A program made the position numbers and the translations under genes. This document shows, piece after piece, positions 963-33,082 of a DNA stretch of 64,000 nucleotides. Under the pieces are notes generated by a model, which was not told the DNA's origin, searched no databases, and was given only the letters and a program-made list of their open reading frames with translations. The stretch comes from Candidatus Zixiibacteriota bacterium (GTDB lineage Bacteria; Zixibacteria; MSB-5A5; GN15; FEB-12): the NCBI GenBank assembly GCA_029860345.1, contig JAOUBJ010000014.1:53731-117730 (forward strand), written 5' to 3'. How positions within the stretch are numbered: the stretch's first letter is position 1; each line of letters opens with the position of its first letter.

Positions 963-974
963 ATCTTGACCTCC

Positions 975-2204: not shown

Positions 2205-2234
2205 AAGCTTCTCCCTCTCTATGGAGAGAATCGT

Positions 2235-3059: not shown

Positions 3060-3973
3060 TACCTCTTCCCTCCCTTGCGACTTCGGAAGTAGGCAATGTT
3101 GCCGATGACAATGAAGCACATTATTACGACGTGGGCCAATGTCTGCGGCCCCATCATTGATAGCCCCGGTTTTTCCATGTCGCTAAAACGGTCATAGCTA
3201 CCGGACAACTGCTCTTCATACTCGGCCGCACCCTTGACACCGCCGAGGATACCTATGATTTGCTGTGGATAGTACGGGTACAACTGCGGCGCCACCACTG
3301 CCGCCACCCCGACGCCGATTGGTACGCCGACCGGATCACCAACGAACAACACCCACTCCTTGGGACCGGGACGTCCCCCGCCCAGGGCAACAATCAGATC
3401 GAAATCGGCGCATGAACCGATCTCTTTGAAAATCTCGGTGCTGTCCAAAGGAACGCCGTTAACATCTGTGGGGAACATCTTTCGGTAATCGGACACGATG
3501 ACATTGAGTACGCCCTCGTTGCCCGCTTTGTAACCGACACTAATATAGTCTTCGCCGTCAACCAAGTCCGGAAACTCCGGCAGGATTACGTTTTGTATGG
3601 TGCCGGTCAACAATGTCTGGCCGGTTGCCCATAGACTCATAAAGACCACCTTGTGGCCTCGGTCGAGACAATGGAAGGAGATGGCATTGGCCATCGGCTG
3701 CACTTCGGGCGCCATGGCCGGATCAAAGTCGAACGAAATCAGTATGCGCGATCCTTCGGGCAGGGTGTCGATACGATCATACAGCCCTTTCACCACGGCC
3801 GTGGCGTGCTCTTCGAATGTGATCGGAAAGAGTATGGGCGCCGCCACCGCCAGGAATATGAACACAAAGATGACGCGACGGTCAACTTCACGACCTTTGA
3901 TCGAGCGTACAAACAGCCAGGCCAAGCCGCCGAAAATAACCACCAATGATATCAGCACTCCGGGTGAATACAT
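3059..3973 (-). CDS. Module family M3 (N- and C-terminal TM helices around a roughly 230 aa soluble domain), cassette II
   Basis: The 304 aa ORF carries LPEGSRILISFDFDPAMAPEVQPMANA, ILGGVKGAAEYE and a C-terminal TM followed by a basic tail. Its ATG overlaps the upstream stop by 1 nt (TAATG). Confidence 0.8.
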   Translation of the reverse strand: MYSPGVLISLVVIFGGLAWLFVRSIKGREVDRRVIFVFIFLAVAAPILFPITFEEHATAVVKGLYDRIDTLPEGSRILISFDFDPAMAPEVQPMANAISFHCLDRGHKVVFMSLWATGQTLLTGTIQNVILPEFPDLVDGEDYISVGYKAGNEGVLNVIVSDYRKMFPTDVNGVPLDSTEIFKEIGSCADFDLIVALGGGRPGPKEWVLFVGDPVGVPIGVGVAAVVAPQLYPYYPQQIIGILGGVKGAAEYEEQLSGSYDRFSDMEKPGLSMMGPQTLAHVVIMCFIVIGNIAYFRSRKGGKR

Positions 3974-4647
3974 TACTTGTCCCCTCCAAGATAGGAGCGT
4001 TCAATGCCGAGGATGAGTCTCAGCGACATTGAGATCACACCCAGCCCGATACCAATCATAATTGCGCGTTGACCGGCCAGGTTGGGAGAGTTCATAATCC
4101 AGATGGCCAAATTGGGGATTTGCAGAATTGATGCCGAGTCCGGTATCCAGCCGGTTACTGCAGTACCGAAAGGTGTGCGTCCCAGCAGTATGACAAAGGC
4201 AGCTATCAACAATAGGGTGGCTTCACGGTTCTTGGCGCGAAAAGCACGGTACGATGCCGAGGCGACGAAGAACGCCAGCAACGAGTACATGGTCGATCCC
4301 AGCGGTATTATCACGGAGTTGAATATATCGTAGAACAGTGAGCCGGGCGCGTCCACGGCTGAGGAGATGTCGCCGGGGTTGTTTATCTTGAACAATCCGG
4401 CCGCCAGCATCACGCTGAATCCAAGCAGTGTCACGATTGAAAAGGGCCAGTCTTCCTTTCGTGCTTTCAGTTTGGCAACGTGCACCCGAATCAGGTTGCC
4501 GCCGCCCAGGAAGAATGCGAAGACGGCAATGATATCAAACCACAGCGTGAATGTTCGTTCCATATCGCCGAACGGCGGGATGAACACCGAGACAATCAAC
4601 AGGGCTCCGACAAAAAACGTTATGAAAAGTGGTATCTGCTGTCTCAT
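3973..4647 (-). CDS. Module family M2 (polytopic membrane protein), cassette II
   Basis: The 224 aa ORF carries LLAFFVASASYRAFRAK and AGQRAIMIGIGLGVISMSLRLILGIERSYLGG. Confidence 0.8.
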   Translation of the reverse strand: MRQQIPLFITFFVGALLIVSVFIPPFGDMERTFTLWFDIIAVFAFFLGGGNLIRVHVAKLKARKEDWPFSIVTLLGFSVMLAAGLFKINNPGDISSAVDAPGSLFYDIFNSVIIPLGSTMYSLLAFFVASASYRAFRAKNREATLLLIAAFVILLGRTPFGTAVTGWIPDSASILQIPNLAIWIMNSPNLAGQRAIMIGIGLGVISMSLRLILGIERSYLGGDK

Positions 4648-4654
4648 AGCTTCT

Positions 4655-5914
4655 CTAACCGGCTGCGAACATCGACATCAGCCATCGATGTAAATCCTTC
4701 ATATACTCCAGGCCCCAGGCTTCAGACGTGGTCACCGCGACCATACCGGCCAGAATCGCAACCATAGCGATCGCCTTGCCCACATCCTGCCCCTTGAGAG
4801 AGCCCAACATACGCGGCTCACCCGACAGATAGGCGGAGGCGGCGAACAGTTCCTCACCGATCAGGGTAAAGTCGCAGGCGGCAATAAAGAAGGGCAATTG
4901 AGCCGGACGGGCAGTACCGGCAATCTGTATGGCGCCAACTGAGTTTCCGGTCTCGGCCAGAATCAACGACTCAGCGAAAAAGGCTCCGAGCAAAAACACG
5001 GTGGCCGGTTTCTCGCGAACCATGAGACCATCGACCGCCGCAACGTAGCCGAACTGTTCATCCGTCACATAGTTGACCATTTCGTCACTATAACCGTCGG
5101 GCCGACCGGCCGCCTGGTAGGATGCCTTGATGGTTTCGCGCGCCGCGGTCATGACCAACGATCGAGCCACCGGCATGAATATCTTGCTGTCGTAATCGGC
5201 GATGGTTCGAGAGACTCTTCCCAGAATGGTCAGCGCAGCCAAAGTTTGCACATCGTCCATATCGTGAATGCCGGGAATGAACAACACCGGTCTACCCATC
5301 TCAGTAGCGCGTCCGACCGCCTCGTCGATAGCTTCCAGACCGGCGATTTTGCGCACGAACAGTTTCTTGCCGCGCTTGGCGGTCTCGACATAGAAGATTA
5401 CGGCACCTGCAATAATCAGGGCCATGATGAGAAGGGAGAGTCGGGCAAAGTTGAACCACTCCGGCTGGGGCGATATCTCCCTCGTCACAACCGATGGATA
5501 CTCACCGCTTTCGGTCAATGTGGCGATGTAATAAGTATAGGTGCTGTCTTTGTCGACATTTTTGTCGGTGAAACTCGCCACGCCCGGCAAAAGATCACTA
5601 ATGGGGGCTGCCTGACCACCGTTGACCGAACGGTAGACCCGATATCCGTCAACAATACTGCCTGCTATCTGGTCGTCAATGGACGGAACCCAGAACAGCC
5701 TCACCGAGTCGCCGTTATCATACACTCCGTCTTCGACCAACAGGGATGTCACCGGCGCAGCTTCAACCACGGCGCTGTCGACAATCAGGGTCGTATCCAA
5801 GGTCAGTTCAGTCTGGCCGAACACCTGGAGGCCGGACGCTGCAAACAGAATGCCAAGGGTAAGTGTAATGGATACGATAGAGCGGGGAGATAATGTCGGT
5901 TGTCGAACTGACAC
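4655..5914 (-). CDS. Module family M1 (signal peptide, Fn3-like ectodomain, TM, conserved C-region), cassette II
   Basis: The 419 aa ORF has a GTG start overlapping the upstream stop (TAGTG). Motifs are GRATEMGRP, FFAESLILAETG, IQIAGT and PFFIAACDFTLIGEELFAASAYL. Confidence 0.8.
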   Translation of the reverse strand: MSVRQPTLSPRSIVSITLTLGILFAASGLQVFGQTELTLDTTLIVDSAVVEAAPVTSLLVEDGVYDNGDSVRLFWVPSIDDQIAGSIVDGYRVYRSVNGGQAAPISDLLPGVASFTDKNVDKDSTYTYYIATLTESGEYPSVVTREISPQPEWFNFARLSLLIMALIIAGAVIFYVETAKRGKKLFVRKIAGLEAIDEAVGRATEMGRPVLFIPGIHDMDDVQTLAALTILGRVSRTIADYDSKIFMPVARSLVMTAARETIKASYQAAGRPDGYSDEMVNYVTDEQFGYVAAVDGLMVREKPATVFLLGAFFAESLILAETGNSVGAIQIAGTARPAQLPFFIAACDFTLIGEELFAASAYLSGEPRMLGSLKGQDVGKAIAMVAILAGMVAVTTSEAWGLEYMKDLHRWLMSMFAAG

Positions 5915-6549
5915 TATCCAATCATCCCCAACCAGTCGCCCAACAGAAAATCGATCCGCCCGATCAAGAGCGACATACGACTCATCACGGTGTATCCGAA
6001 GGAAGCGCCGAAAGTAATCATAATGAAGAATATTCCAACGCGAGCGGTACCGCCAAATGCCCCGGTGTGTTCTTTGGAAAAGAAGAAATATACCAGCCCG
6101 GTAAAAGTGCCGATGACTATCACCAGATTACTTATAATGGCACCCAAACCGGCATCGAATCCTTGTCCAAATGCGGAGGATAGCAGCGGCATAATGGTGG
6201 CCTGGGTCTGGACCATGATATTCGAGGCCAGGAAATTCATCAACCACAGACCGGCCGTCGAGCCGACGATAAAGGCCAGCGGCCAACGTGAAATCCATCC
6301 GATCTTGGGCACCAGCCGCATAATCATCAGGATTCCCAAAGCCATGCCTACCCACAGCATCGGTTCATCCTGCCAACCATCCCAGAACTTACCCACAAGG
6401 TTGTCCCAGAACAACGTCACTACCCAGAAGCCGGCCGAGATGCCGACAAATATAGCCTCGCTCAGCTTATACCACGGGTTGTCCTTGTACAAAAACGAAA
6501 GGATGCCGAGGGTCAAAAAGGCTCCGAGCCAAAGGGCGAAATGTTCCAT
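5914..6549 (-). CDS. Module family M4 (polytopic membrane protein), cassette I
   Basis: The 211 aa ORF carries FLYKDNPWYK, SRWPLAFIVG, YFFFSKEHTG and FGYTVMSRMSLLIGR. Confidence 0.8.
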   Translation of the reverse strand: MEHFALWLGAFLTLGILSFLYKDNPWYKLSEAIFVGISAGFWVVTLFWDNLVGKFWDGWQDEPMLWVGMALGILMIMRLVPKIGWISRWPLAFIVGSTAGLWLMNFLASNIMVQTQATIMPLLSSAFGQGFDAGLGAIISNLVIVIGTFTGLVYFFFSKEHTGAFGGTARVGIFFIMITFGASFGYTVMSRMSLLIGRIDFLLGDWLGMIG

Positions 6550-6561
6550 ACTGCCTCTGCC

Positions 6562-7569
6562 CTATCCTTTCAAAGCTGACTTACGTCCGCCCATAATGAA
6601 GGCGATGTTGCCGATGAGCACAAAAGCGATCACGATTACGTGTGCGAACGATTGTGACAGCATAAATATGGTGCCTTTGCCGCGGTATTCGGTCAGGGTC
6701 TCAAACTCGGCCGCACCACTCATCCCACCCATCAGTCCGATTAACTGCCCTGCGTCGAGATAGGCATACATCTGGGGCGCCTGCACCGCCGTGTTACCGG
6801 CGCCAAGCCTGACCCCATATCGGTCGACCGCTATCTGCACCCACTCGACGGAGCCTGGGAAACCGGCCGAGAGATTAACGGAGTAATCGATGTTGGAGAA
6901 GTTGCGCACGTTCTTTACCAGGGGAATCTCTTCGTAGGGCGTGCCTTCGTAGTCGCTTGAGAACATAGACTCAAACGAGGAGCCCATGCGCTGAATCACA
7001 AACTCGTTACCGGTCTGAAAACCTAAGTTTACATAGTCCACACCGTACTGAAGGTTTTTGGCCGCAATCTCCGGTTCCTGAAAGACCCTCTCGATAGCCA
7101 GGTTGGCCTGCTGCGGCCCTTGTGGCCAGAGACCCATCATGATGACCTTCAGGTCACGTTGAAAACAGAGCCTGAGAACAGCCTCGGCCATCGGCTGCAA
7201 CTCCGGCCCCGAAGGCGGATCGTAATCGAACGATATCAATACCTTCGACCCTTCCGGCAATTCAAGGACTGCATCGTACAGCTCTCTTACTTCCGGCGAA
7301 ATGGAAATCTTCTGAGAAATACTCATGAACAACGGCAAGGCCACCGCAATGCCTACATATAGGAACACAATCCGTCGCTCAATCAGGCGTCCCTTTATGG
7401 TCAGGATCATTATCCACAGAAGCGACAGGGCCAGGAGCGCTATCACTATTACCGACTCGGTCGTCGAAAACGTAATCGTCTCTCCACCGCCCACTTTTCT
7501 AAGATAGAAGACGAGAGCAAAGACGATGGCTCCAACTACGACAATGAGTTCCTTGACACGGGTGCTCAC
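6562..7569 (-). CDS. Module family M3 (bitopic, periplasmic-type domain), cassette I
   Basis: Motifs are LPEGSKVLISFDYDPPSGPELQPMAEA and LMGGMSGAAEFE. I placed the start at the GTG overlapping the stop of 7566..8216 (GTGA) instead of the track's 7695, which would overlap the upstream gene by 130 nt. Confidence 0.7.
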   Translation of the reverse strand: MSTRVKELIVVVGAIVFALVFYLRKVGGGETITFSTTESVIVIALLALSLLWIMILTIKGRLIERRIVFLYVGIAVALPLFMSISQKISISPEVRELYDAVLELPEGSKVLISFDYDPPSGPELQPMAEAVLRLCFQRDLKVIMMGLWPQGPQQANLAIERVFQEPEIAAKNLQYGVDYVNLGFQTGNEFVIQRMGSSFESMFSSDYEGTPYEEIPLVKNVRNFSNIDYSVNLSAGFPGSVEWVQIAVDRYGVRLGAGNTAVQAPQMYAYLDAGQLIGLMGGMSGAAEFETLTEYRGKGTIFMLSQSFAHVIVIAFVLIGNIAFIMGGRKSALKG

Positions 7570-8216
7570 TCGCCACCCCCGATATGGGAGCGTTCCAGGC
7601 CAAGGATAATACGTAGCGAGGTTGACACGATGCCCAGCCCGATGCCGATCATGATGGCTCTCTGTCCGGCTGCCTGAGGCACATTCATCACCCACGAGGC
7701 CAGATCGGAGAGTTGATATCCGGCGGGCATGAACGACGACAGGGTGTACCCTACCGGCACCCGTCCGATCATCACAAAGAAGGCCGCGATCAGCAACAGG
7801 GTCGCTTCGAAGTTCCTGGCCCGGAAGGCGCGATATGAAGCCGAAGCGACATAGAAGGCGAGGATTGCAAACATCGTGGCCGACAGCGGGATGTACGTAT
7901 AGTTGTAGAGCCAGTCAAAGGGGGTGCCGGGATTACGGAAGTCACGTCCGCCGGCCAATCCGATAATCACCATCAACAAAAACGTCGCTATGATCACCGC
8001 CGCATAGCCCCAATCAGCTTTCATCCTGGATACCTTGAGAATCGATATCTTCATCAGGTTGAGCGCACCCAGAATAATCGCACAGGCCTGGACAATAGAG
8101 AACCAGTCGGAGAACCAGTTACTCATGTTGCTGAACGGCCAGTGCGGTATAAAATACTGGACCACGAACCCGAGGCCGACAATGGCTGTTATGAATATTG
8201 GAACTTCTCTGCGCAT
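7566..8216 (-). CDS. Module family M2 (polytopic membrane protein), cassette I
   Basis: The 216 aa ORF carries ILAFYVASASYRAFRAR and AGQRAIMIGIGLGIVSTSLRIILGLERSHIGG. Confidence 0.8.
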   Translation of the reverse strand: MRREVPIFITAIVGLGFVVQYFIPHWPFSNMSNWFSDWFSIVQACAIILGALNLMKISILKVSRMKADWGYAAVIIATFLLMVIIGLAGGRDFRNPGTPFDWLYNYTYIPLSATMFAILAFYVASASYRAFRARNFEATLLLIAAFFVMIGRVPVGYTLSSFMPAGYQLSDLASWVMNVPQAAGQRAIMIGIGLGIVSTSLRIILGLERSHIGGGE

Positions 8217-8218
8217 AT

Positions 8219-9604
8219 TTAGTCAATCACCGAAAACAGATTGGATAGTTGCCAGACGCCCAGTGTTTCCAACAGGACACCCAGCACCAGGGCGCCCAAC
8301 ACAACGGCCTTGCCGATATCCTGTCCTTTGAGCGATCCCAGCAGTTTGGGTTCTTTCGACAGATAAGCGGAGGCGGCAAAAAGCTCCTCGCCTATCAGAG
8401 TATAGTCACAGGCCGCGACAAAGAACGGCAACTGCGATGGCATGGCCGTACCGGCGATCTGAATGGCCCCGATGGAGTTGCCGGTCTCAGCCAGAATCAA
8501 TGACTCGGCGAAAAACTGGCCCATGAAAAACACGGTGGCCGGTTTCTCACGCACAAACATCCCGTCCACTCCGGCGGCGTAGCCGAACTGATCGTCGGTA
8601 AGGTAATGCACCTGATCGACGTTATATGCGTCCGGACGCCCGACTTTGGAGTAGGCTTCTTTGAGCACTTCGCGCGCCGTCACCATAACCATCGAACGAC
8701 AGACCGGCACGTCCAGGTAAGTCTCGTATTCAGCCGACAACTCGGCCACGCGACCGAGAATAGTAACACCGGCGATTGTCTGCATATTATCCATATCGCC
8801 GATACCAGGTACGTAGAAGATTTTCCGACCCATCTCAGTGGCACGGCCGACAGCTTCATCGACTGCCTCAAGACCGGCGATTTTGCGAATGAAGAGTTTC
8901 TTGCCGGACTTGGCCTGAAAGATGTAGAATATGATAAATGTGGTCAGGAGGAACATACCGACCAGTGTATTGATGCGCTGTTTGTGAAACCATTGTTGCG
9001 ATGAAGTAATCGGTCCGGCCGAGACCGACTCGGAAGTATACTCGTGCACGTCACCGGCTTCATCGTAAACGAGACTGACGGCGATAACCTTGTACATGTA
9101 CATCCTGCCATCGGTCGCGTTGCCGTCGTTGTGGGCGTAAAAAACTCTGCCCGCCGGAGAATCGCCAACCAGGCTGTCTTCACTGAATTGACCCGGTTGA
9201 CCGTCGATTTCATCGGCCCGCATTATGCGATACAGCCTGACATTGCCGCCATCGTGATCATCGGGCGAGCGCACCCAGGTTACGGTGATGGAGCCACCGG
9301 CATCGTTATCGGTGTCGGCGACAGTAATCTCTGTGGCCGGTGCCGGCTTGTTATCCGCGGCTGCGCTTTCGGCTGCGGCCATAGTAGAATCGATTTCGGT
9401 GGAATCAGGCTCGGCCTTCGCCATGGCAGCGACCGGGACCAGCCATAACATGAGTAACACCAGGGCGATACCTGGAATGTGAGGATAGTCGGTCTTATGC
9501 CGGCGAGGGTTCAAAACGTATCTTTCAAACTTCCGCTGTCTTGTCAGTAACCAGCTTACGCCGGCGCCGACCGTGGTGAAGTCATCAGTTGGGCTCTCTG
9601 TCAA
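8219..9604 (-). CDS. Module family M1 (Fn3-like ectodomain, TM, conserved C-region), cassette I; first gene of the minus-strand train
   Basis: Motifs are GRATEMGRK, FFAESLILAETG, IQIAGT and PFFVAACDYTLIGEELFAASAYL. The coordinates give the maximal ORF from TTG 9604. The true start is probably internal (TTG 9514, GTG 9460 or ATG 9451), just before the signal-like segment IALVLLMLWLVPVAAMA. Confidence 0.75.
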   Translation of the reverse strand: MTESPTDDFTTVGAGVSWLLTRQRKFERYVLNPRRHKTDYPHIPGIALVLLMLWLVPVAAMAKAEPDSTEIDSTMAAAESAAADNKPAPATEITVADTDNDAGGSITVTWVRSPDDHDGGNVRLYRIMRADEIDGQPGQFSEDSLVGDSPAGRVFYAHNDGNATDGRMYMYKVIAVSLVYDEAGDVHEYTSESVSAGPITSSQQWFHKQRINTLVGMFLLTTFIIFYIFQAKSGKKLFIRKIAGLEAVDEAVGRATEMGRKIFYVPGIGDMDNMQTIAGVTILGRVAELSAEYETYLDVPVCRSMVMVTAREVLKEAYSKVGRPDAYNVDQVHYLTDDQFGYAAGVDGMFVREKPATVFFMGQFFAESLILAETGNSIGAIQIAGTAMPSQLPFFVAACDYTLIGEELFAASAYLSKEPKLLGSLKGQDIGKAVVLGALVLGVLLETLGVWQLSNLFSVID

Positions 9605-9759
9605 ACATTCAGATCACCGCACGCCTCTATGTAGAGACGGGCCAGACTTCGTAGTTGTGCAAAACAACAGCAGCCAATCTATGATTGCCCTCAATTATAG
9701 TCAAGGAAAAAAGGTAGAGGGTGATTGGGGGCAAAACGGGTAGCGCCCTCACACTATCT

Positions 9760-10046
9760 GTGCCCGCGTGATCTTCAGATCGCGTGGGGTCGCAGTAGGG
9801 CGGGTCCGTCCTCGCCTGCGCGCCGCGGCGTGAACCCGCCAGTTGCCCCATGGAGTCATTCTGGCGAAGGCCAGAATCCAGTCTTCTCTTCGTAGGTCGG
9901 AACCCCCTGTGGTTCCGACAACGCGCGAAGCGCGAAAAACCCCGCGTTGCGCGGGGTGTCACCCCGAGCGCAGTCGAAGGACAGGCAAGCCTGTTCTTGT
10001 GCGCTACGCGCGCCACCAATGTCATCCTGAGCGGAGTCGAAGGATG
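9760..10046. repeat. Mosaic of interspersed short repeat modules (REP/BIME-like)
   Basis: The region holds a hairpin module at 9760-9789 and a 46-bp module at 9795-9840. It also holds gtcattctggcgaaggccagaatccagtc at 9856-9884, a gcgcgaagcgcg module near 9925, and two tcgaagg modules at 9960-9985 and 10021-10046. Each recurs elsewhere in the window. Confidence 0.85.
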
Positions 10047-10051
10047 CCGCG

Positions 10052-12802
10052 CTACTCCCCCAACTCCTCCAACAACCTGCCAGCTTCGGTGTACGCGGCA
10101 TGGTAGGTATAATCGGGCGGCCCATCGCAATAGGCTAGTTTACGGGCTTTCTGTGCGTGTTCAAGCGCGGTCTTTTTGTCGCCTGAGTCGCGGGCGAGCT
10201 TGGCCAATTCCAGATGCGCATCCGCACCTTGCAAGACGTAACCACTCCGCTTGGTAATGAGCAGCGCTTCTTCCGCCAGCCGCTTTGCTTCCTTCGGATC
10301 GCCGGTGGCAGCACACAACCGCGCCAGATCAATCAGGATATCGGCCTCGTGATCCACCATGTTGATGCGGCGGCAACGTTCCAGCGCCTCGTGCAGGTGT
10401 CCTTCGGCCTCGTCAAGCTGCCCAACAACACGGTGTGCCGCGCCCAGCAGCCAGTGTGCCCGGACGTAGTCGCGCGCGTTAGGACGCCCTACCTGTATCT
10501 GCCATTCATCCGCTAGCTTAAGTGCTCGTTGCGCCGATTCAAGTGCAGACTGCGATGAGTAATTCACCGAGTCAGATTCTGAGCGAAGCCGCAGTAAGTC
10601 GCGCAGGGCACGGTAGGCACAGATCACACCTTGTGCCTGAAGGTGCTCATCTCGCTTCTTGATTACCTCGCTAGCTTTGAGAACATCAGAAGATTCTGAC
10701 CACTGACCCCGGATTGCCAGCACTCTCCCCAATTCGTAAAGCCCCGTCCCTTCTTTCCCCTCGTCCGTGATCTCCCGGCAGATATCGATGCCGCGGCGCA
10801 AACTGGTATCGGCGGCCTGCAGAGCGCCAAGTTCGCGGTGGCGGTGGGCCACGTTCACCAAGACGGTAGCGAGGTTTCCTTTGTCGTCCTGCCTCTCACA
10901 AATCGCTATGTCCTGCTGAAACAGCGATGCTGCGCGGCGCGGTTGGCCAGTGAGTCCGTAGGAGTTCGCTAACGCTCCCAGCACCCAGCCCTGAGCGCTG
11001 TCATCTGTCAGACACGGAGGCCTGTCATCGCCGTCAGGGAAAAGCGCACACAGCAGGTCAATCTCCAACTGATAGGCGCCGAACTGGAAATAGATTGGGT
11101 CAGCGAGGCGATCCCGATAAAGTGCGCGCGCCTCGTCAAACTGCCCGGCACGGACGGTGTGGTGATAGAGTTCGATCACCGGATTCAGTTCCTCCAGGGT
11201 CGTCACCTCGGACGGTGTGGGAACGGCGGCGAAGTAACTACGCAGCTTTGTGTGGGCATCGTTGCGTTCGAGTTTGCCCAACCGGTCGTAGGCATAGCGA
11301 CGAACGATGGGATGCAGGTCGAACTGTTTCTTCTCGGTGTCGTGGTGCAATAACCCTCGCGCAACCAGGTCTTGCAGATCGCTTTCGAGAGTTACGGTGG
11401 ATTCTCCGGCCTCCACCGCCACGGCCTCTAATGTCTCGAATGTGACTGGGCTGCGGAAACAGGCTATACGGCTGAGCAACGCTCTTCGCTCTAAGGTGAG
11501 GGAGTCGTAGGCTACTTCCAGCACGTGATGCTGGCGCGCGACCAGATCACCTGCCACGTCCAACTCCTTAGCGACAGCGATATCGCCGGGTTGCTGCAGA
11601 CTCTTCACCACCACGCCTGCGACCAAGCTCAGGCTGAGCGGATGGTAACCGTATGGTTCGCACACCTGCTCGATCTCGGCGCGCGCTCCACGTATGCCCC
11701 GAGCACGGAAGTACGCCACTGCATCATCAGGCTGCATCTGTAATAGTACCTCTTCGCAGCAGCCTTGCAGAAACTGACCGCCTGTGGTCTCCAGAATGCT
11801 GGGACAGAGCCGGGTGGTGAGCATGACTTTAGATCGAATATTTGGCAGAGTAGATACTCTCCGCAGGAAAGTCTCGGCCAGTGGCGAGATGCAGTCGGTG
11901 TCATTCTCTTTGGGCTTATCTCCGTCACCCTGATATGCCGCGTTGAGCCCGGCAAAGGCGCGCAGCTCCCGCTCGAAACCATCCAGCACCAACAGCGTGC
12001 CAGTTTTGTGGAGCTCGTCCACCAGCGCCTCGATGTCATTAGCGGTTGTAGTTGCTGACGTGACTTCCTCGCCGCTTATGTAACCCAAGGTTCTGGCAAT
12101 GAATCTATCGAACGAGGCCTCACTTTCATAGAAGCTCCACCAGACAACACGCGGCCAATCGGTGGGCTTCACATCGTTCATCAGCCAATGCCAGACCAGC
12201 GCGCTCTTGCCAAAGCCACCCAGCGCCCGAAGACTGAGCAAAGGATGCGCCTCGTCAGCGTTCAGCCATTCGGACAGCATTCTGCGTTCGCTGATACGTC
12301 CGGTGAAGTTGGGCGGCATCGGATACGTATGTGCGAAGCACCAATTGTCGCGCTTCGGTGCTTTCGGTTTCGGCGGCTCCGGCGGCCTGCCCAACGCAGT
12401 CAGTAGCTGCCGCCAGGCGAGGTCAAGGTCGGCACCATCAGTAAAGTCGATGTGGTTGTACACGTCGATGTCGAGCGGTTTATCGGATTTCGTTTTGAGC
12501 AACGGGATCAGCCGGAGGTCGCGATTCGCCGGTCCGAGGGTCTGAACCATGACGGCCTCGAATTCGCACCACTCGCTCTCAATGTAATCAGGAGTGATTA
12601 CCACCAATGTCTTGCGGCTTTCAACCACACCTCGCTTGCACTCCTTGACGTTCAAAGCTCCGGGCTTGAAATCACGGTGGTCAATAAACGCTGTCAGTCC
12701 AGCACTCTCGATGCGCTCAAGCAACTCCCCGCGCACCCATTCCTGGTCCTTGCTGCTGTACGAAATGAAAACGTCGTACTTGTAATCAGTCTCTTCGACC
12801 AT
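10052..12802 (-). CDS. TIR-NB-ARC-TPR STAND NTPase (candidate anti-phage or immune sensor)
   Basis: The N-terminal TIR reads YDVFISYSSKDQEWV...ESEWCEFE. NB-ARC motifs are Walker A GGFGKSAL, Walker B LLVLDGFE, MLTTR and a GLPL-like GYHPLSLSL. The C-terminal half has TPR-like repeats. I chose ATG 12802 with an upstream GAGG; the track's GTG 12862 is the alternative. Confidence 0.85.
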   Translation of the reverse strand: MVEETDYKYDVFISYSSKDQEWVRGELLERIESAGLTAFIDHRDFKPGALNVKECKRGVVESRKTLVVITPDYIESEWCEFEAVMVQTLGPANRDLRLIPLLKTKSDKPLDIDVYNHIDFTDGADLDLAWRQLLTALGRPPEPPKPKAPKRDNWCFAHTYPMPPNFTGRISERRMLSEWLNADEAHPLLSLRALGGFGKSALVWHWLMNDVKPTDWPRVVWWSFYESEASFDRFIARTLGYISGEEVTSATTTANDIEALVDELHKTGTLLVLDGFERELRAFAGLNAAYQGDGDKPKENDTDCISPLAETFLRRVSTLPNIRSKVMLTTRLCPSILETTGGQFLQGCCEEVLLQMQPDDAVAYFRARGIRGARAEIEQVCEPYGYHPLSLSLVAGVVVKSLQQPGDIAVAKELDVAGDLVARQHHVLEVAYDSLTLERRALLSRIACFRSPVTFETLEAVAVEAGESTVTLESDLQDLVARGLLHHDTEKKQFDLHPIVRRYAYDRLGKLERNDAHTKLRSYFAAVPTPSEVTTLEELNPVIELYHHTVRAGQFDEARALYRDRLADPIYFQFGAYQLEIDLLCALFPDGDDRPPCLTDDSAQGWVLGALANSYGLTGQPRRAASLFQQDIAICERQDDKGNLATVLVNVAHRHRELGALQAADTSLRRGIDICREITDEGKEGTGLYELGRVLAIRGQWSESSDVLKASEVIKKRDEHLQAQGVICAYRALRDLLRLRSESDSVNYSSQSALESAQRALKLADEWQIQVGRPNARDYVRAHWLLGAAHRVVGQLDEAEGHLHEALERCRRINMVDHEADILIDLARLCAATGDPKEAKRLAEEALLITKRSGYVLQGADAHLELAKLARDSGDKKTALEHAQKARKLAYCDGPPDYTYHAAYTEAGRLLEELGE

Positions 12803-12946
12803 CAACCCTACCTCTGGCGGATGCCGTGATGAACTGTCGCGCAGCCGTTTGATCGCGAGCACTGTTTTCTCGGGCGGCTACGTCGTTGGGAAGAAGATAA
12901 TATCGTACACCTTTGGCTCAAAGCAAATTATGCGACATGCCTATAC

Positions 12947-13260
12947 TTCGACTGTGTTCATACCTCGACTCCGCTCGGTATGACTTGAAGTGCGCACAGA
13001 GAAGTAGGGCGGGTCCGTCTTCGCCTGCGCGCCGCGGCGTGAACCCGCCGAGAGCCACAGCTTGCCTGTGTTAGGTCCGCCAATAGTCCAGACCCAAAAA
13101 GAGCCGTCGCGCGAGGTCGCACAACGGCACCCACGCGAGCTGAAGATCACGCGGGCACGGTATTGTGTACAACGCATGCTTCGACTCCGCTCAATACGAG
13201 GTTGGGAAGTGTGCGCGAAGCGCGAGAGCCATTCATGGCCGCGGAGCCCAAAGAAGCGAT
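12947..13260. repeat. Mosaic of interspersed short repeat modules
   Basis: The region holds tcgactccgctc modules near 12965 and 13178. It also holds the 46-bp module at 13004-13049 (45/46 identical to 9795-9840), the hairpin module inverted at 13130-13158, and a gcgcgaagcgcg module near 13213. Confidence 0.85.
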
Positions 13261-13556
13261 TTATCGCCGCCAATTCTGCGCTGGTGCACGTTTCTGCGCG
13301 CGAAAATCAGCAGCTTCTGCGTTTTTTGATGTTCCATACGAGCGTTCACAGATGTGAACATCCAAGCAACTGACTGCCCGGCTATGCGTTAGTGAATTGG
13401 ATGCGTAGCTTGGCACACCGTTTGTTTATGTTATTGGCTCCGGGGTTAGTCGAACACTTAAATAGGCAAGCCCGCAAACCTGCCGATTTATGAGATCTTC
13501 AGGTAGTGATGATGGCGGTCGCACTACTTGAATGCCCCGGTTGGTGAGGAGAGAAA

Positions 13557-16879: not shown

Positions 16880-16933
16880 TTCTGTTATACTAACGAGTCA
16901 CAGTGTTCGTGGTCAAATGCTGCTCATATTTCT

Positions 16934-17350
16934 GTCATTCCCGCGTAGGCGGGGATCCATCTTCACTTTTGTTCCCGGCGGGTTCGAAGACGGACCCACC
17001 CTACCTTTAATACACTGCATAAGACCCACCAGCCGTTTCGCTATAGCTGCGGTAGATTCACCACCGCACGGAGCGCGCAAAACAGGCTTGCCTGTCACCC
17101 TGAGCGCAGTCGAAGGGTGAACCATCTATCTGACCTATCCCACACCACGACTGCGCTCGGTGTGACATCGACGCATATTGTCCAGCCAATCCTCGCAGTA
17201 GGTCAGGAGCCCAGTGCTCCTGACTCTCTCGGCAGGTCTGAAAACAGACCCGCACTACCGCATTCCAGTGGCGGGCTCACGCCGCGGCGTGCAGGCGAAG
17301 GCGGACCCGCCCTACGAATTGTGCCCGCGTGATCTTCAGATCGCGTGGGT
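16934..17350. repeat. Mosaic of interspersed short repeat modules
   Basis: The region holds gtcattcccgcgtaggcggggatcc at 16934-16962, a short 46-bp-module variant at 16977-17006 and gtcaccctgagcgcagtcgaagggtg near 17093. The full 46-bp module is at 17270-17315 and the hairpin module at 17321-17350. Confidence 0.85.
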
Positions 17351-17394
17351 CCTCAAGTGGTGTCGGTCGACCGCGCCCGACACCTGCTTTTCGC

Positions 17395-19368: not shown

Positions 19369-20017
19369 TCTTCCTCCTGGGGTGTAAGGATGGCCGTTAT
19401 CAATGCGACTATATTATGGCGGTCGCTTGGTATGTCAAGATATTACTGGTGGTAAACCACCTCTTCGCGCTTCGCGGCGATAAATCGCTTCCTTGCGCTG
19501 CGCGCCATTCAGGTCATACTAAGCGCAGCCAGACGTTGACCGGTCGAAGGTGTAAGAAAGGCTCTGTTGAAGCACCAAAGGTATATAATGCGATGTGATG
19601 TGGAAAAAAAGACCCGGAATCGCACATTTTGCGCCGAACCATTGCGAGTATAAACCGACTAAATAGGCAAAAGTTTTAGTTTTTGAGGAACAAGTTTCGC
19701 ATCACATTGTAAAAGAATGCGTATGGTATAGGAGACCAATCACACGGGATTGGCATTGCAACGCAGGACGTAAGACTCAAAGAGGCGATAACGAAACACA
19801 AAACGCTTGACAAAAACCGAGACGAAATATAAGTTATGAATAGACCCGAATCTAAAGACCGTCGATATTATAAATCCACGTTAAGAGTTAACGGCTTCAC
19901 CGATTGCACAGGCGTATTACGGATGGACAACGGCTGCTTGGGATCATGGACGAACGGTTCCTCGAGTAGCTACAAACCAACACTATTAGCACGGGCAAAG
20001 TGCTAAGGAGGTGAACC

Positions 20018-20879: not shown

Positions 20880-20911
20880 GACGCCCTCTCTTTTGAGAGG
20901 GCGTTTTTTTT
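20880..20911 (+). terminator. Rho-independent terminator
   Basis: The stem acgccctctc / gagagggcgt closes a tttt loop and is followed by T7. It lies 40 nt after the stop of 20018..20839. Confidence 0.8.
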
Positions 20912-20940
20912 GTGCGGGGGTGGGGTGGGGTGGGGGCAGT

Positions 20941-21040
20941 GTATTCGGGCACCCTTCGACTCCGCTCAGGGTGACGTGTGCAACGCGCGAAGCGCAGGAA
21001 GTGATTCATCACCTCATGCTGAGCGGAGTCGAAGCATGAA
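20941..21040. repeat. Interspersed repeat modules
   Basis: The region reads cacccttcgactccgctcagggtgac, gcgcgaagcgcaggaagtgattcatcacc and catgctgagcggagtcgaagcatg. Confidence 0.8.
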
Positions 21041-21242: not shown

Positions 21243-23219
21243 ATGTATCCCACCACAATCATTCCGAAGCCTACACTTGTCATAGCGCTGCTCCTCATCG
21301 TCGTGGCGCCATCTGTTCTTGCCTATGACACCACATCCATCAGTTACGGCTACAGCGGTGCAGGGGCAATCTCCCCGGCTGGAGAGTACGACGTGTACTA
21401 CTTCGATGGCGAGATCGGTGATGTAGTCCTGATCCGGATGAGCGATACGGAAGACAACGGAGTCTATATTGACCCTCGGATCGAGTTGTATGATCCGAGT
21501 GGGAGCCTGATCGCATCCGATAGCACCAGCAGCTTCCAAGCCCAGGTATTAGATGTACAATTGGAAAGCACGGGCACCTTTAAAATCGTCGCCAGTGACT
21601 GGGGCGATAACGACACCCGAGCTTACGGCCTTAGCCTTCAGTGTGTGAACACAACCGGCTACGCCGAGCTTATCAGCTATGGTTACAACGGCGAGAGCAG
21701 TATCGCGTTTCTGTCCGAGATGGACGCTTACCAGTTCGATGGCACAGCCGGCGATGTCATCCTGATCCGAATGAGTGATACGGAGGACAACGGAGTCTAT
21801 ATTGATCCAAGGATCGAGTTGTATGACCACAACGGTGTTCTTGTTGCATCCCACCAGACATCCACCTTCCAGGCCAGGATTGTGGACTTCACTCTGCCGT
21901 CCACAGGCACCTACACTCTCATCGCCAGCGACATCAACGGCGAAGACGTACGAGCATACGGTTTGGGCCTTCAGTGTGTGAACACAACCGGCTACGCCGA
22001 GCTTATCAGCTATGGTTACAACGGCGAGAGCAGTATCGCGTTTCTGTCCGAGATGGACGCTTACCAGTTCGATGGCACAGCCGGCGATGTCATCCTGATC
22101 CGAATGAGTGATACGGAGGACAACGGAGTCTATATTGATCCAAGGATCGAGTTGTATGACCACAACGGTGTTCTTGTTGCATCCCACCAGACATCCACCT
22201 TCCAGGCCAGGATTGTGGACTTCACTCTGCCGTCCACAGGCACCTACACTCTCATCGCCAGCGACATCAACGGCGAAGACGTACGAGCATACGGTTTGGG
22301 CCTTCAGTGTGTGAACACAACCGGCTACGCCGAGCTTATCAGCTATGGTTACAACGGCGAGAGCAGTATCGCGTTTCTGTCCGAGATGGACGCTTACCAG
22401 TTCGAAGGCACAGCCGGTGATGTCATCCTGATCCGAATGAGTGATACGGAGGACAACGGAGTCTACATTGATCCGCAGATCGAGTTGTATGACCACAACG
22501 GTGTTCTTGTTGCATCCCACTGGACATCCACCTTCCAGGCCAGGATTGTGGACTTCACTCTGCCGTCCACAGGCACCTACACTCTCATCGCCAGCGACAT
22601 CAACGGCGAAGACGTACGTGCTTACGGTTTGGGCCTTCAGTGTGTGAACTGCTTTGGAATCTTGCCAACGATAAGATATAGCACCTGTGATACTGGCAGG
22701 GTCGCTCTGCTATCCGAGATGGACGGTTTTCAATTCGTGGGGTCCGCAGGTGACAGTGTCATCATCCGGATGAGCGACGGCTATGGTAACGGCGTGTATA
22801 TTGACCCTCGAATCGAACTATTTGATCCTGATGGTGAGAGACTGGCAGACACCGCCACAACAGGTGCTGAGGGCAGCCTCGAAGTCAAGATAGACGGAAG
22901 CGGCCTTCACACAGTAATTATGAGCGACTTTGGCGGAGATGACTCTCGCGCTTATGATTTCTCCCTGTGCAATCCCGATCCTGAAGGATGCTACGGGATA
23001 CGCGGGAATGTCAATGGTTCCAGGTGTGACTGCAATATTATTGATATCAGCGATCTTGTCTTTCTGATCGATTACATGTTCCAGAACGGCCCAGAGCCGC
23101 CCAACTGGGACGAGGCCGACATCAACGGCTCAGGGACTTTGCCTATTGACATCAGCGATCTGGTATACTTGATCGATTACATGTTCAGTGGCGGTCCACC
23201 GCCGCCGGATTGTCCGTAG
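21243..23219 (+). CDS. Secreted protein with six PPC-like (pre-peptidase C-terminal type) beta-sandwich repeats and a C-terminal dockerin-like double segment
   Basis: AGGAGG is followed by ATG, and a signal peptide is present. A roughly 111 aa unit (YDxYxFxGxAGDVxLIRMSD..YIDPRIELYD..GTYTLIASD..RAYGLxLQCV) occurs six times. The tail reads NVNGS..IDISDLVFLIDYMF and DINGSGTLPIDISDLVYLIDYMF. Confidence 0.7.
   Translation: MYPTTIIPKPTLVIALLLIVVAPSVLAYDTTSISYGYSGAGAISPAGEYDVYYFDGEIGDVVLIRMSDTEDNGVYIDPRIELYDPSGSLIASDSTSSFQAQVLDVQLESTGTFKIVASDWGDNDTRAYGLSLQCVNTTGYAELISYGYNGESSIAFLSEMDAYQFDGTAGDVILIRMSDTEDNGVYIDPRIELYDHNGVLVASHQTSTFQARIVDFTLPSTGTYTLIASDINGEDVRAYGLGLQCVNTTGYAELISYGYNGESSIAFLSEMDAYQFDGTAGDVILIRMSDTEDNGVYIDPRIELYDHNGVLVASHQTSTFQARIVDFTLPSTGTYTLIASDINGEDVRAYGLGLQCVNTTGYAELISYGYNGESSIAFLSEMDAYQFEGTAGDVILIRMSDTEDNGVYIDPQIELYDHNGVLVASHWTSTFQARIVDFTLPSTGTYTLIASDINGEDVRAYGLGLQCVNCFGILPTIRYSTCDTGRVALLSEMDGFQFVGSAGDSVIIRMSDGYGNGVYIDPRIELFDPDGERLADTATTGAEGSLEVKIDGSGLHTVIMSDFGGDDSRAYDFSLCNPDPEGCYGIRGNVNGSRCDCNIIDISDLVFLIDYMFQNGPEPPNWDEADINGSGTLPIDISDLVYLIDYMFSGGPPPPDCP
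21635..22633 (+). repeat. Three near-identical 333-bp tandem repeats inside the CDS
   Basis: Units begin at 21635, 21968 and 22301. Units 1 and 2 look identical by eye and unit 3 differs at a few positions. The track shows identical 68 aa off-frame ORFs spaced 333 nt apart (21775, 22108, 22441). Confidence 0.9.
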
Positions 23220-23424
23220 AAGTTATGTGGGCTGGAGGCTCCCGGCGGACCATGGTTGCCCCGGCCCCTCCCCCCCCCCAACCAAAAACAGAACCAACCC
23301 ACCGCAAAATGCGAATGCGTGCTCATATAGCAGGATCAGCCTTCGACAACACCGAAAAACCGGCCCGAAAAAACGTTTTCCGCAAAACGAACCCATTTCC
23401 CTGCCGCCCAGCCTCGCTGTGTTG

Positions 23425-23575
23425 TCATGCTGGCGAAGGCCAGCATCCAGTCCTCGCTTGCAGAACTGGATTCCGGGTCAAAGTCCGAAATGACAAGGAA
23501 GCGAGCCGCACGACCCCTCGACTCCGCTCGGGGTGACATGGGCACGCGCGAAGCGCGAAAAAGTGATTCATCACC
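23425..23575. repeat. Interspersed repeat modules
   Basis: The region reads gtcatgctggcgaaggccagcatccagtc, cccctcgactccgctcggggtgac and gcgcgaagcgcgaaaaagtgattcatcacc. Confidence 0.8.
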
Positions 23576-23590
23576 GCTTAGCGCCAAAAA

Positions 23591-25546: not shown

Positions 25547-25672
25547 GACCGACTGCAAACTGGATCCGCCCCACACAAGGTTTGAGCGGCCATCCGATGA
25601 AGACCAAGTAGTTTGACACGGCGCTGGGTCCTATTCGCCACAGGCGGGTAAGAGCCAGCGCTTTGTCTCTAT

Positions 25673-26097: not shown

Positions 26098-26297
26098 CCG
26101 TTTCTCCTATTCACACTTTTAGGAAATGATACGGGGAGAAGCCGGACCCTGAGACACAAATTGTGCGCTTTTTTGGGGCCTTAATGGTACTCCACCTAAA
26201 GCGAAGCGTCAGGTGGGACCTTTCAAGCACGAACCCACCCGCCCATAATTGGGCTGATGCGCAAGGCCTCAGGGCGGGGTACCGTTCGCCGCTGGAA

Positions 26298-27489: not shown

Positions 27490-27990
27490 CACGGGCGGTC
27501 TGCCGGCTGGCCGTCTCAAACCTTGTTTGTGACGGGTGGTTTAGAGTCACCCCCAAGCCAGGCTTGAGGGTGCCACCCAGTCGGATTCATGGTACTAAAC
27601 GGAACGATATTGAGTTACGACGAATTGGGTTCGTTTTGGGTACTTTCGCTTTACTCCCAACGCCCCACTTCCCGCGAATGTACAAGCCACCTATGGCGGG
27701 TTCACGCCTCGGCGCGCAGGCGATGACGGACGCGGCCTACTACAAGGTTGCGCCGCCGCGTTTTGTATGGGATTGGTAGAGTCTTTGTGGCGAATAAACC
27801 CACCCGGCGCGAAGCGCTCTGGGTGGGGTACCGAAGTGCTTGGGCGGCAACTCGCGTCCAAGCGTTGTGCCCGCTGAGTCTTCAGACTCGGTGGGCACAT
27901 GGACAGCATTCTTTCTAGCTCGGGGATTCATCTAATCCCACAGCAAGCTGTGGGGCACCCGGCGGGTTTGGAGACGGACCCGGCCTACAA
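27490..27990. repeat. Mosaic of interspersed short repeat modules
   Basis: The 46-bp module is at 27695-27740, a covarying hairpin variant at 27867-27898, and a short module variant at 27961-27988. The caaaccttgtttg and gggtgccaccc modules are shared with 58675-58760 and 25575-25600. Confidence 0.8.
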
Positions 27991-28609: not shown

Positions 28610-28870
28610 CTCACTGGGCCCACCAGCCCATGAATGGGTCTGATCCGCGAAGCGCTCTGGGTGGGGTACTGGAGTGATAAATCACTCTTTCGCGCTTTGC
28701 GAGCCGGTGATCTCGGCTATAGTCTTTGAGTAGGGCAGGTCTCTCTTCTTTTGGAGACCTGCCAGCAATGGCGGGTTCACGCCTCGGCGCACAGGCGAAG
28801 ACGAACCTGCCCCACAAGATTGCATCGGATGGATTCATGCTTCGACTCCGCTCAGCATGAGGTTGTGTCG
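28610..28870. repeat. Interspersed repeat modules
   Basis: A gcgaagcgctctgggtgggg module and a gtgataaatcac palindrome are present. The 46-bp module is at 28770-28815, followed by catgcttcgactccgctcagcatgaggttg. Confidence 0.8.
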
Positions 28871-29169
28871 GGACCGCTAAGGGGTACCGACCTACAGGAA
28901 GTCTGTCGAAACCCGCCTTCGGCGACCATAAATGGCATTTATGCCCTTCGGGCCAGGGGTTTCGACCTACAAAGACAAGATGGATGCCGGATCAAGTCCG
29001 GCATGACGAGATCGTAGCCGCAAAAAACCCCCTTTACATCCAAATCGGGATGTGTTATTATGGCTGGCTCTGAGGTCCCCCAAAGGCCGGAAAAAGCTCA
29101 GGCTATTGTTTTGGGAGCCAAAGGTATAGATAGAATAATGTAACCATTCAGAAAACACGGATTTAGTTA

Positions 29170-33000: not shown

Positions 33001-33033
33001 GCGCGGACAGCGGCGCCAGCCTCAAATAACAAA

Positions 33034-33061
33034 CCTCCCGGAGTTCCGGGAGGTTTTTTTC
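33034..33061. terminator. Bidirectional rho-independent terminator
   Basis: The stem cctcccgg / ccgggagg closes an agtt loop, with T7 on the plus strand and an A-rich run on the other side. It sits between the convergent genes 31873..33000 and 33083..33289. Confidence 0.8.
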
Positions 33062-33082
33062 TGCTTATTATTCGACCTGAGA

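Follow-up and report, generated by a model that had tools for sequence, protein, structure and literature searches.

Hairpin repeats in the intergenic DNA of a Zixibacteria genome are very probably repetitive extragenic palindromes

Introduction

Repetitive extragenic palindromes (REPs) are on record for more than 80 species from 8 phyla (PMC3733652), and later surveys find them widely. In this paper we describe short hairpin-forming repeats in a 64-kb stretch of a genome of the candidate division Zixibacteria (contig JAOUBJ010000014.1, positions 53,731 to 117,730; this whole stretch is called the window below), with particular attention to the spacer at 16880-17394 of the window, and compare them with the REP types known from other bacteria. 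In the GTAG-tagged REPs an unpaired GTAG stands at the end of a stem-loop whose stem has 5-13 bp and whose loop has 2-20 nt, or is longer and structured as in GTAG-3 and GTAG-14 (PMC3733652). The REP-associated tyrosine transposase (RAYT) of E. coli reads the GTAG of its REPs base-specifically, and the tag serves as the guide for contact and cleavage (PMC3479197). A further class, CGTC-1, has CGTC, TGTC or CCTC as its terminal tag and contains the dRS3 repeats of Neisseria, and for the CGTC REPs a transposase is known in no organism (PMC3733652). Our literature search found no paper linking Zixibacteria to REPs.

An earlier note, made from the sequence of the window alone, had defined seven short repeat modules, A to G, at 13 sites and had likened them to REPs and to the bacterial interspersed mosaic elements (BIMEs) which REPs form. 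We conclude that the repeats are very probably REPs, that is, short, non-coding, non-autonomous hairpin-forming DNA which has multiplied in this Zixibacteria genome. They comprise a diversified GTAG superfamily, to which the lineage-specific module A belongs, a CGTC-1 family (modules E and F) of the dRS3 hairpin type, and the families C, D, B and G. By their sequence features the modules belong to two described REP classes, the GTAG-tagged and the CGTC-tagged, so that a known kind of selfish DNA has a new host in this lineage.

Results and Discussion

All module sequences quoted in the earlier note are present at the 13 sites. When the seven consensuses were compared with the window by Hamming distance, with at most 25% mismatch allowed, we found 44 copies (A 6, B 3, C 14, D 13, E 3, F 3 and G 2), and all 44 lie between genes, as had been claimed, outside open reading frames (ORFs) of at least 125 aa; 20 Markov shuffles of the window gave only 0-2 module matches. 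Self-comparison of the window also resolved discrete short repeat families at these sites, and extra repeat sites were recognized (Table 1). We counted as repeat-covered any sequence with two or more further copies in the pooled genome sample; by this measure the 13 sites are covered to 47-100% each, and copy numbers reach ~95. The repeats take up 2,847 bp of the 11,854 bp of intergenic DNA (24%), or 4.4% of the window, so the earlier estimate of 3-4 kb has to be lowered slightly, to ~2.85 kb. Their density, described as unusual, is high, yet it falls inside the range known for REP-rich genomes (PMC3733652). Every hairpin that was folded is more stable than shuffled sequence (z scores of -2.4 to -5.0 for DNA folding). 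The seven modules were all recovered, but E and F turned out to be one family and many further families exist. Spurious ORFs across the repeats were found as predicted (9627-10130, 46709-47212, 58447-58845 and 12941-13273), and public annotation predicts a 78-aa ORF across the second of the 13 sites (12947-13260).

The likeness to REPs and BIMEs rests on palindromes with GTAG or (C/T)GTC tags, covarying stems, head-to-head dimers and tandem clusters, and the earlier comparison was apt in this respect. In a census of perfect stems of at least 8 bp in 535 kb of sequence, GTAG was the most enriched of the 4-mers that flank a stem (64 cases, 20.6-fold over background), followed by TGTC (6.8-fold), and all 64 of the GTAG-flanked stems belong to families other than A. 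In these hairpins GTAGG is followed by a stem, then by a loop and by the arm that complements the stem; the stems, each with a matching 3' arm, include TCAGGAC, TCAGGAG, TCAGGTCC, TCGAAACC, TCGGAACC, GCAGGATC, GCGGAACC and GCAGGTCT. Short forms of ~23 nt have stems of 7-9 bp and loops of 5-8 nt, and long forms of ~44 nt, module A included, have a self-pairing interior of 26-28 nt. With stems of 7 bp or more counted there are 128 GTAG hairpins, 81 of them singletons, and their dimers are arranged head-to-head (14, typically 6 nt apart), head-to-tail (10) or tail-to-tail (1). In the window, this GTAGG-stem-loop superfamily consists of hairpins outside the seven modules of the earlier note. The tag, the sizes of stem and loop, the compensating stem changes and the dispersed, intergenic occurrence in high copy number with head-to-head dimers are all those of GTAG REPs. 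Module A itself is 46 bp long, begins with GTAGG and has an unpaired GTAG head. Its master sequence is found in 19 of 79 copies and is accompanied by a cloud of one-off mutants, a population structure which fits a recent burst specific to this lineage. The suggestion that the system was recently active is therefore plausible for module A, which is also missing from relatives at 72% LigA identity.

Modules E and F share the same hairpin, with at least eight compensating stem variants. The tag is TGTC in 38 of 59 cases and CGTC in 11 (together 49 of 59), the 8-bp stem starts with AT in 35 of 59, the 4-nt loops include GAAG (25), GCAG (8) and GTAG (4), and the tail CCA follows in 43 of 59. The dimers of this family are head-to-head (5), head-to-tail (2) or tail-to-tail (1). 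Screens of the sampled loci for the HUH...Y motif detected no transposase near the hairpins. The family thus has the tag, the 8-bp AT stem, the 4-nt loop, the CCA tail, the head-to-head dimers and the lack of a linked transposase by which CGTC-1 is recognized. The E hairpin occurs, nearly unchanged and in multiple copies, in replicons of Legionella, Azospirillum, Novosphingobium, Photobacterium and Neisseria. A BLAST search of a plasmid collection gave only chance-level matches for A and D and only borderline partial ones for C, and among the modules searched in this way only E is clearly cosmopolitan. As a separate observation, the 1.69-Mb replicon pGJ3-1 of Photobacterium sp. GJ3 (L082, 186284-226312) carries large arrays with a period of ~200 bp, in which CGTC-1 hairpins stand on either strand, 39 of them within 40 kb; these look like Neisseria intergenic mosaic elements (NIMEs) on a Vibrionaceae megaplasmid or chromid.

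The other families are also hairpins. C has a variable 7-bp stem and a conserved 12-nt loop, GAGCGSAGTCGA; D consists of two mini-hairpins; B has an 11-bp stem with the loop TTCA; and the G unit is half of an inverted doublet. Double changes occur in 4 of the 7 stem pairs of C and in 4 of the 8 of D, and none of 500 shuffles reached the pairing observed for these two families. Copies of C and D have a median identity of ~80%, and both families are older than module A and common to relatives. Outside the list of the earlier note there is also a family of mini-hairpins, CACGG-TCAAG-CCGTG, which forms arrays of 19-20-bp units with up to 11.8 copies (Table 1).

The window is a segment of a bacterial chromosome with a GC content of ~54%, with housekeeping genes for LigA, SmpB, Ham1 and a Tol-Pal/ExbBD system and with several proteins that carry tails of the type IX secretion system (T9SS). 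LigA is 100% identical to a protein of a candidate division Zixibacteria metagenome-assembled genome at NCBI, and the next relatives are Zixibacteria too. The same population, at least 99.9% identical, is present in assemblies from NCBI (GCA_029860125.1, GCA_029859495.1), ENA, Logan and JGI (3300022206, 3300022308), and occurs in estuarine-type sediment metagenomes. Independent public contigs (L001, L004 and L005) end inside REP modules, at window positions 17324, 20967, 21035, 47056 and 48005, and such breaks are an independent sign of multi-copy DNA. Are the repeats found elsewhere? We searched for module A with a degenerate pattern matching all six copies of the window. One genome per species for 185,579 species gave two chance matches only, and 241 M JGI metagenome records gave 64 loci, all from three sister samples; among these records module A is specific to one population. 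None of the 64 loci overlaps the window. In one of the samples, Ga0224509, they lie on more than 20 contigs of 637 kb down to 23 kb, together ~4 Mb. The loci which contain module A hold 110 copies of C, 91 of A, 50 of E, 43 of D, 40 of F, 40 of G and 13 of B. The modules are thus present on at least 20 large contigs of the same assembly, in independent sequence, and are not confined to the window, in agreement with the genome-wide spread proposed at first. The ~10 kb to the left of the window (L008) contain no modules, so the repeat density is patchy.

The focal spacer, 16880-17394, lies between two minus-strand genes, with an OPT transporter gene upstream and a PMT/TPR gene downstream, and it holds at least ten hairpins out of at least six families. 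These and the other repeats are listed in Table 1.

Table 1. Repeat features of the window and related arrays at other loci (window coordinates unless a locus is named; fold values are for DNA)
Feature	Coordinates	Strand	Description
CGTC-1 REP (module E)	16933-16971	+	TGTC tag, stem ATTCCCGC, loop GTAG, stem GCGGGGAT, tail CCA, TCTTC... extension; z -2.4
GTAG-tagged REP GTAGGGTGGGTCCGTCTTCGAACCCGCC	16977-17004	-	module A stem in short form
D-like unit	17070-17095	+	GCGCGC element, A-run, hairpin ACAGGC-TT-GCCTGT; read from sequence
Module C inverted doublet, REPIN-like	17094-17166		C(+) 17094-17120, C(-) 17140-17166; 73-nt hairpin, -20.2 kcal/mol, z -5.0
GTAG-tagged REP GTAGGTCAGGAGCCCAGTGCTCCTGAC	17198-17224	+	z -4.5
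GTAG-tagged REP GTAGTGCGGGTCTGTTTTCAGACCTGCC	17231-17258	-	one of the GTAG REPs of the focal spacer
Module A, GTAG-tagged long REP	17270-17315	-	7-bp outer stem, structured 26-nt interior; -16.1 kcal/mol, z -2.6
Module B hairpin	17321-17349	+	11-bp stem, loop TTCA; z -4.7
Hairpin GGTGTCGG...CCGACACC	17359-17385		further family GGTGTCGGGCGGGGTCGCC..GACACC, present in other loci
Mosaic	9760-10047		order B(+), A(+), CGTC-1/F(+), GTAG REP(+) 9892-9919, D-like, C(+), D-like(-), C(+); 97% repeat-covered, directly 3' of the end of the TIR-TPR gene
Mosaic, divergent spacer	12947-13270		C-like, A(+) 13004-13049, B(-) 13130-13158, C variant 13175-13201, D-like
Two overlapping D(-) units and degenerate C	19448-19545		adjoins -35 element (19438) of OPT gene promoter
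C(-), D(+), C variant(+)	20949-21040		between terminator 20880-20912 and promoter 21075
Head-to-head CGTC-1 dimer, then C(-), D(+)	23423-23577		F(+) 23423-23452 faces degenerate copy 23467-23497; upstream of promoter 23628
Module G unit	25564-25597	+	convergent spacer
Mosaic	27504-27990		G inverted doublet 27508-27580, A(-) 27695-27740, hairpin 27799-27827, B-like 27867-27898, GTAG REP(-) 27961-27988
Mosaic	28610-29009		D(-), GTAG REP(+) 28730-28763, A(-) 28770-28815, C variant(-), GTAG REP(-) 28866-28895, long GTAG REP(-) 28905-28970, CGTC REP with 5-nt loop 28984-29009; then promoter 29033
Solitary diverged D unit	39965-39994	+	upstream of ligA
Convergent LigA-PhaR spacer	42078-42335		GTAG REP(-) 42078-42110, A(-) 42130-42175, hairpin 42183-42212, C variant 42246-42275, mini-hairpin CACGGCTTGACCGTG 42321-42335
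Long GTAG REP(+) and complete CGTC-1 REP(-)	46957-47052		GTAG REP 46957-47004, CGTC-1 REP 47023-47052; z -3.8
Polar 20-bp tandem array, 6.6 copies	47041-47172	-	unit = spacer, TGTC tag and 5' arm of adjacent CGTC-1 REP
61-bp unit C(-) and D(+), 6.1 tandem copies	47851-48221		BIME-like cluster
Mosaic after terminator 58527-58558	58559-58761		D(-), GTAG REP(-) 58591-58617, B-like hairpin 58633-58660, G inverted doublet 58680-58761
GTAGG-stem-loop superfamily	9892-9919, 16977-17004, 17198-17224, 17231-17258, 27961-27988, 28730-28763, 28866-28895, 28905-28970, 42078-42110, 46957-47004, 58591-58617		outside the seven modules
Extra repeat sites	26186-26217, 28904-29007, 39965-39994, 42304-42335, 46950-47005		beyond the 13 sites
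Polar half-hairpin arrays	window 47041-47172; L015 1099-1234; L021 4635-4721; L023 206-288; L037 1595-1687; L063 5542-5673; L016 2740-2843; L019 5854-5932; L064 3641-3695
CACGG-TCAAG-CCGTG mini-hairpins	L076 7136-7370; L064 3440-3614; L015 1443-1594		arrays; single unit in window, 42321-42335

To follow the repeats through evolution, we compared syntenic Zixibacteria, namely L078 and L079 (~72% LigA identity) and L080 and L081 (65%). L078 and L079 possess CGTC-1, C, D-like and GTAGG-TCGAAACC/-TCAGGATCC REPs; A, B and G were not found in these two. L080 and L081 have compact spacers without repeats, and their racemase-Ham1 spacer has 22 bp compared with 282-325 bp in the closer genomes. For the convergent spacer of LigA and PhaR the lengths are 31 bp (L079), 218 bp (L078) and 277 bp (window), and the modules in it differ between L078 and the window. 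Comparison of L078 12026-12243 with L079 12026-12056 reveals a cleanly delimited REP cluster of 187 bp, which sits exactly after the last sense codon of ligA and before the original TAA and gives ligA a new TAG stop. Within this cluster the loop of a GTAGGTCGAAACC GTAG REP encloses a C module, a nesting seen again at L015 1754-1810. In the racemase-Ham1 spacer (L078 16840-17030 against L079 16660-16690), ~167 bp extra lie inside the loop of a CGTC-1 hairpin, and the 17 bp of tag, 5' arm and loop (TGTCATTCCTGCGAAAG) are directly duplicated on either side of them; this segment could be an insertion, or it could have been lost from L079 by deletion between half-hairpin repeats. That orthologous spacers are empty or hold other modules in relatives indicates gain and loss of the repeats.

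Could the hairpins be mainly functional signals kept by the host, such as terminators, stabilisers of mRNA 3' ends or insulators, and not selfish DNA? Many modules do lie just downstream of gene 3' ends, the hairpins are stable, convergent spacers are ~2-fold enriched per bp, and effects of REPs on mRNA decay and termination have been described in E. coli (PMC3733652; preprint bioRxiv 10.64898/2026.03.23.713779). However, no T-tract follows the module stems and no module is among the T-tailed hairpins. Genuine, canonical terminators stand upstream of the repeats (20880-20912 and 58527-58558), and the modules lie between these and strong promoter-like sites, whose -35 elements (19438, 21075, 23628 and 29033) start just outside the repeat blocks. 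In the pooled data there is no orientation bias with respect to transcription for GTAG (15 against 17), CGTC (6 against 6), A (10 against 11), D (12 against 12) or C (16 against 24), only G being skewed (14 against 4). Divergent spacers are not avoided and hold 18 of the 72 classifiable GTAG REPs; the counts of G.T and A.C mismatches are mixed, with no consistent excess of G.T and no consistent strand signal; and, as described above, the spacers of the same genes in relatives are empty or hold other modules. Intrinsic terminators were rejected as a candidate for want of a T-run and with real terminators beside the modules. Since T-tracts and orientation bias are lacking and the modules are placed between terminators and promoters, they are not terminators, and the role in termination or insulation suggested in the earlier note could not be upheld. 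The pattern is that of tolerated selfish insertions and not of oriented RNA signals, and we consider it unlikely that the hairpins are chiefly host signals.

We favour the explanation that the repeats are REPs, which have been gained and lost between related species under selection on the hairpin structure and on a fixed unpaired tag. Our data show that copies land or survive only where they are harmless, between a real terminator and the next promoter or between convergent genes. They nest in each other, form head-to-head doublets and are amplified locally into tandem arrays, giving rise to BIME- or NIME-like mosaics. The literature suggests that the GTAG types may move by cut-and-paste in the form of single-stranded hairpins, through a RAYT, an HUH/Y1 transposase encoded in single copy which reads the GTAG. 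If the repeats influence mRNA stability or supercoiling at all, we would regard this as a secondary effect.

Several points weigh against this explanation. The enzyme was not found. No RAYT, IS200 or other transposase was detected by Pfam in the window. In 561 kb of other loci, strict and loose motif searches detected no ORF bearing HUH...Y(I/V)xxNP, the signature that all RAYT subclasses share (PMC6006769), and phmmer searches of the same loci with the E. coli RAYT and IS200 TnpA gave no matches. Of the 74 copies of module A outside the window, 54 have at least 1 kb of sequence on both sides, and none has a RAYT-like gene nearby; where inverted REPs flank an ORF, this is either an ordinary gene or spurious. 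A RAYT or IS200-type gene, for which the earlier note had recommended a search, is therefore lacking in the window and in ~0.5 Mb of other loci. Control searches showed that the IS200 probe matches Pfam Y1_Tnp, whereas the RAYT probe, which is exactly PDB 4ER8, has no Pfam Y1_Tnp match at E<=1e-3 and is not retrieved by IS200 TnpA with phmmer. Searches based on IS200 thus cannot exclude RAYTs, RAYT genes can escape annotation by Pfam only, and with ~12-15% of the genome sampled a RAYT may exist elsewhere. As none was found in the ~0.6 Mb sampled, it is from the literature that the mobilisation of the GTAG families is deduced. In addition, C, D, B and G carry neither the canonical GTAG nor the canonical CGTC tag. 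No insertion polymorphism was seen within the population: at 99.9-100% identity, neither the five independent assemblies nor the ten redundant locus pairs show indels at the repeats, so that the comparison of modules between strains proposed at the outset was uninformative and the case for mobility rests on the comparison between species, which cannot separate insertion from deletion. Finally, the metagenome loci and the window only probably belong to one genome, to judge from the shared assembly, the shared specific module and an argument from contig rank.

Some arrays of the repeats have an architecture of which PMC3733652 contains no description. In the pooled 0.6 Mb, Tandem Repeats Finder detected at least 20 tandem arrays with a period of 17-22 bp. 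Six CGTC-1 arrays (including that of the window at 47041-47172) and three C-family arrays, with periods of 19-22 bp, share a polar layout (Table 1): on the tag strand, a number of units made of an 8-10-nt C/T-rich spacer, the tag and the 5' arm are followed by exactly one complete hairpin at the 3' end. The spacer is distinct for each array and the unit always breaks at the junction of arm and loop. At least one upstream half-copy, with a period of ~20 bp, accompanies ~10 of 33 complete CGTC-1 REPs here, compared with 2 of 60, at different distances, in samples of Photobacterium, Neisseria and Novosphingobium. Replication slippage at stalled hairpins, by way of C-rich microhomology, is the simplest explanation of the polar arrays. 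Is it possible that they are instead footprints of the process which mobilises CGTC-type REPs? Repeated nicking and rejoining in the hairpin loop, at the arm/loop junction, could produce them in the manner of rolling-circle-type HUH enzymes. We regard this as a speculative and rather improbable idea; if it is true, the Zixibacteria lineage offers a handle on the enzyme that moves CGTC/dRS3 repeats and on how it does so.

The same arrays bear on the question of whether the repeats have spread mainly without a dedicated transposase, through hairpin slippage, recombination or gene conversion, de novo formation and tandem amplification. The 17-22-bp arrays are built from REP halves or mini-hairpins, their polar architecture and C-rich spacers offer microhomology, whole modules form arrays of 61 bp and 87 bp, and a 17-bp half-hairpin duplication borders the L078 indel; moreover, the sampled sequence yielded no transposase, and for CGTC REPs none is known in any organism. 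Slippage can account for local arrays. It does not account for near-identical 46-bp copies dispersed over at least 20 contigs, and it leaves the conserved unpaired GTAG tag, the contact and cleavage guide of the E. coli RAYT, unexplained. Spread mainly by such means is therefore very unlikely in our opinion. That the modules are fragments of a single known insertion sequence (IS) or MITE (a transposable element of the miniature inverted-repeat kind), or assembly artefacts, is hardly credible: although certain pairs recur (A with the C variant, the G doublet, C with D) and contigs often end in repeats, 89% of the 1,190 matches between sites are shorter than 60 bp and the longest outside arrays has ~100 bp, so the modules are not pieces of one IS or MITE, an outcome which would have refuted the reading of the earlier note; their order and orientation vary between sites, terminal inverted repeats with target duplications are lacking, the sampled sequence yielded no transposase, and the same sequence was obtained in five independent assemblies (ENA, NCBI, JGI, Logan). 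A MITE, with 100-400 bp, terminal inverted repeats and target-site duplications, was rejected as a candidate, no conserved longer unit being present.

Other observations concern the genes around the repeats. Repeats in coding regions are unrelated to the modules and comprise paralogous membrane-protein operons, T9SS tail domains and a 333-bp in-frame repeat in the gene 21243-23219. This gene, for a secreted PPC-domain/T9SS protein, contains ~3 tandem units at 21618-22649 which are 96-98% identical; the protein has 658 aa in the window and 547 aa in GCA_029860125.1, exactly one unit fewer, so the copy number of this repeat varies between assemblies or strains. Three paralogous gene sets, at 147-9604 (-) and 58776-62946 (+), each begin with a DUF6754 protein, behind which come 4-5 membrane proteins without a Pfam match; the DNA identity between the sets is 74-83%. 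The gene 10052-12862 encodes a TIR-domain and TPR (MalT-like/STAND) protein of 936 aa with a defence-like architecture, and a REP mosaic begins 5 nt past its stop codon. The 663-bp gap at 33001-33663 is without REPs; it has a canonical terminator at 33031-33056 and a small minus-strand ORF of ~66-68 aa, lipoprotein-like, which is annotated and conserved in L078, L079 and L081. Across the whole window there was no Rfam match at or above the gathering threshold, and a tRNA scan of the window found nothing.

What do these repeats add to the present knowledge of REPs? Both the host and the sequence families are new and the repeats unusually dense, but they follow a principle that is not new. The range of GTAG- and CGTC-tagged REPs is extended to an uncultivated phylum, the candidate division Zixibacteria, where both superfamilies coexist with extra hairpin families at a density of about a quarter of the intergenic DNA of the window. 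In practice, such repeats fragment short-read metagenome assemblies and create spurious ORFs which are later deposited in protein databases, and some of them, such as module A, are lineage-specific markers. That the CGTC-1 hairpin is nearly identical in different phyla brings out the problem of what spreads and maintains it, and perhaps the polar half-hairpin arrays may give a clue.

Comparison with known repeat systems

The GTAG-tagged REPs described here resemble the REP/BIME elements of E. coli, the REPINs of Pseudomonas (doublets of inverted REPs) and the SMAGs of Stenotrophomonas (Di Nocera et al. 2013, PMC3733652) in the unpaired GTAG and the 7-9-bp stem, in subfamilies with compensating changes, in short and long-loop forms, in head-to-head dimers, in genome-wide intergenic high copy number and in lineage-specific types. 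They differ from them in the new stems TCAGGAC, TCGAAACC and GCAGGATC and the new 46-bp module A, and in their Zixibacteria host, whose ~0.6 Mb sampled did not yield the cognate RAYT that, flanked by REPs, makes up a REPtron. With the REPIN-RAYT system (Bertels and Rainey 2011, PMC3116915) the repeats as a whole share inverted doublets that form long hairpins, as module C does at 17094-17166, module G in its doublets and the GTAG REPs in their head-to-head dimers, and, in module A, a master sequence with its mutant cloud; unlike that system the repeats include many singletons (81 of 128 GTAG hairpins), and again a RAYT is missing from the sampled sequence.

Modules E and F agree with CGTC-1/dRS3 (PMC3733652) in the (C/T)GTC tag, the 8-bp AT stem, the G(A/C/T)AG loop, the CCA tail, the head-to-head dimers and the absence of an associated transposase from the sampled loci. 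They differ in carrying a conserved 3' extension, TCTTCTCTTGTA, and, in comparison with CGTC-1 of three proteobacterial samples, in how often tandem copies of their own 5' half lie upstream (~10 of 33 against 2 of 60). As in the BIMEs of E. coli and the NIMEs of Neisseria, palindromic units of several types are joined in variable order and orientation and form tandem clusters. In contrast to a BIME, the 61-bp array alternates C(-) and D(+), and not one REP in alternating orientation with defined linkers, and in contrast to a NIME, the CGTC-1 hairpins are present in only 5 of 13 mosaics and do not bracket other units as dRS3 does.

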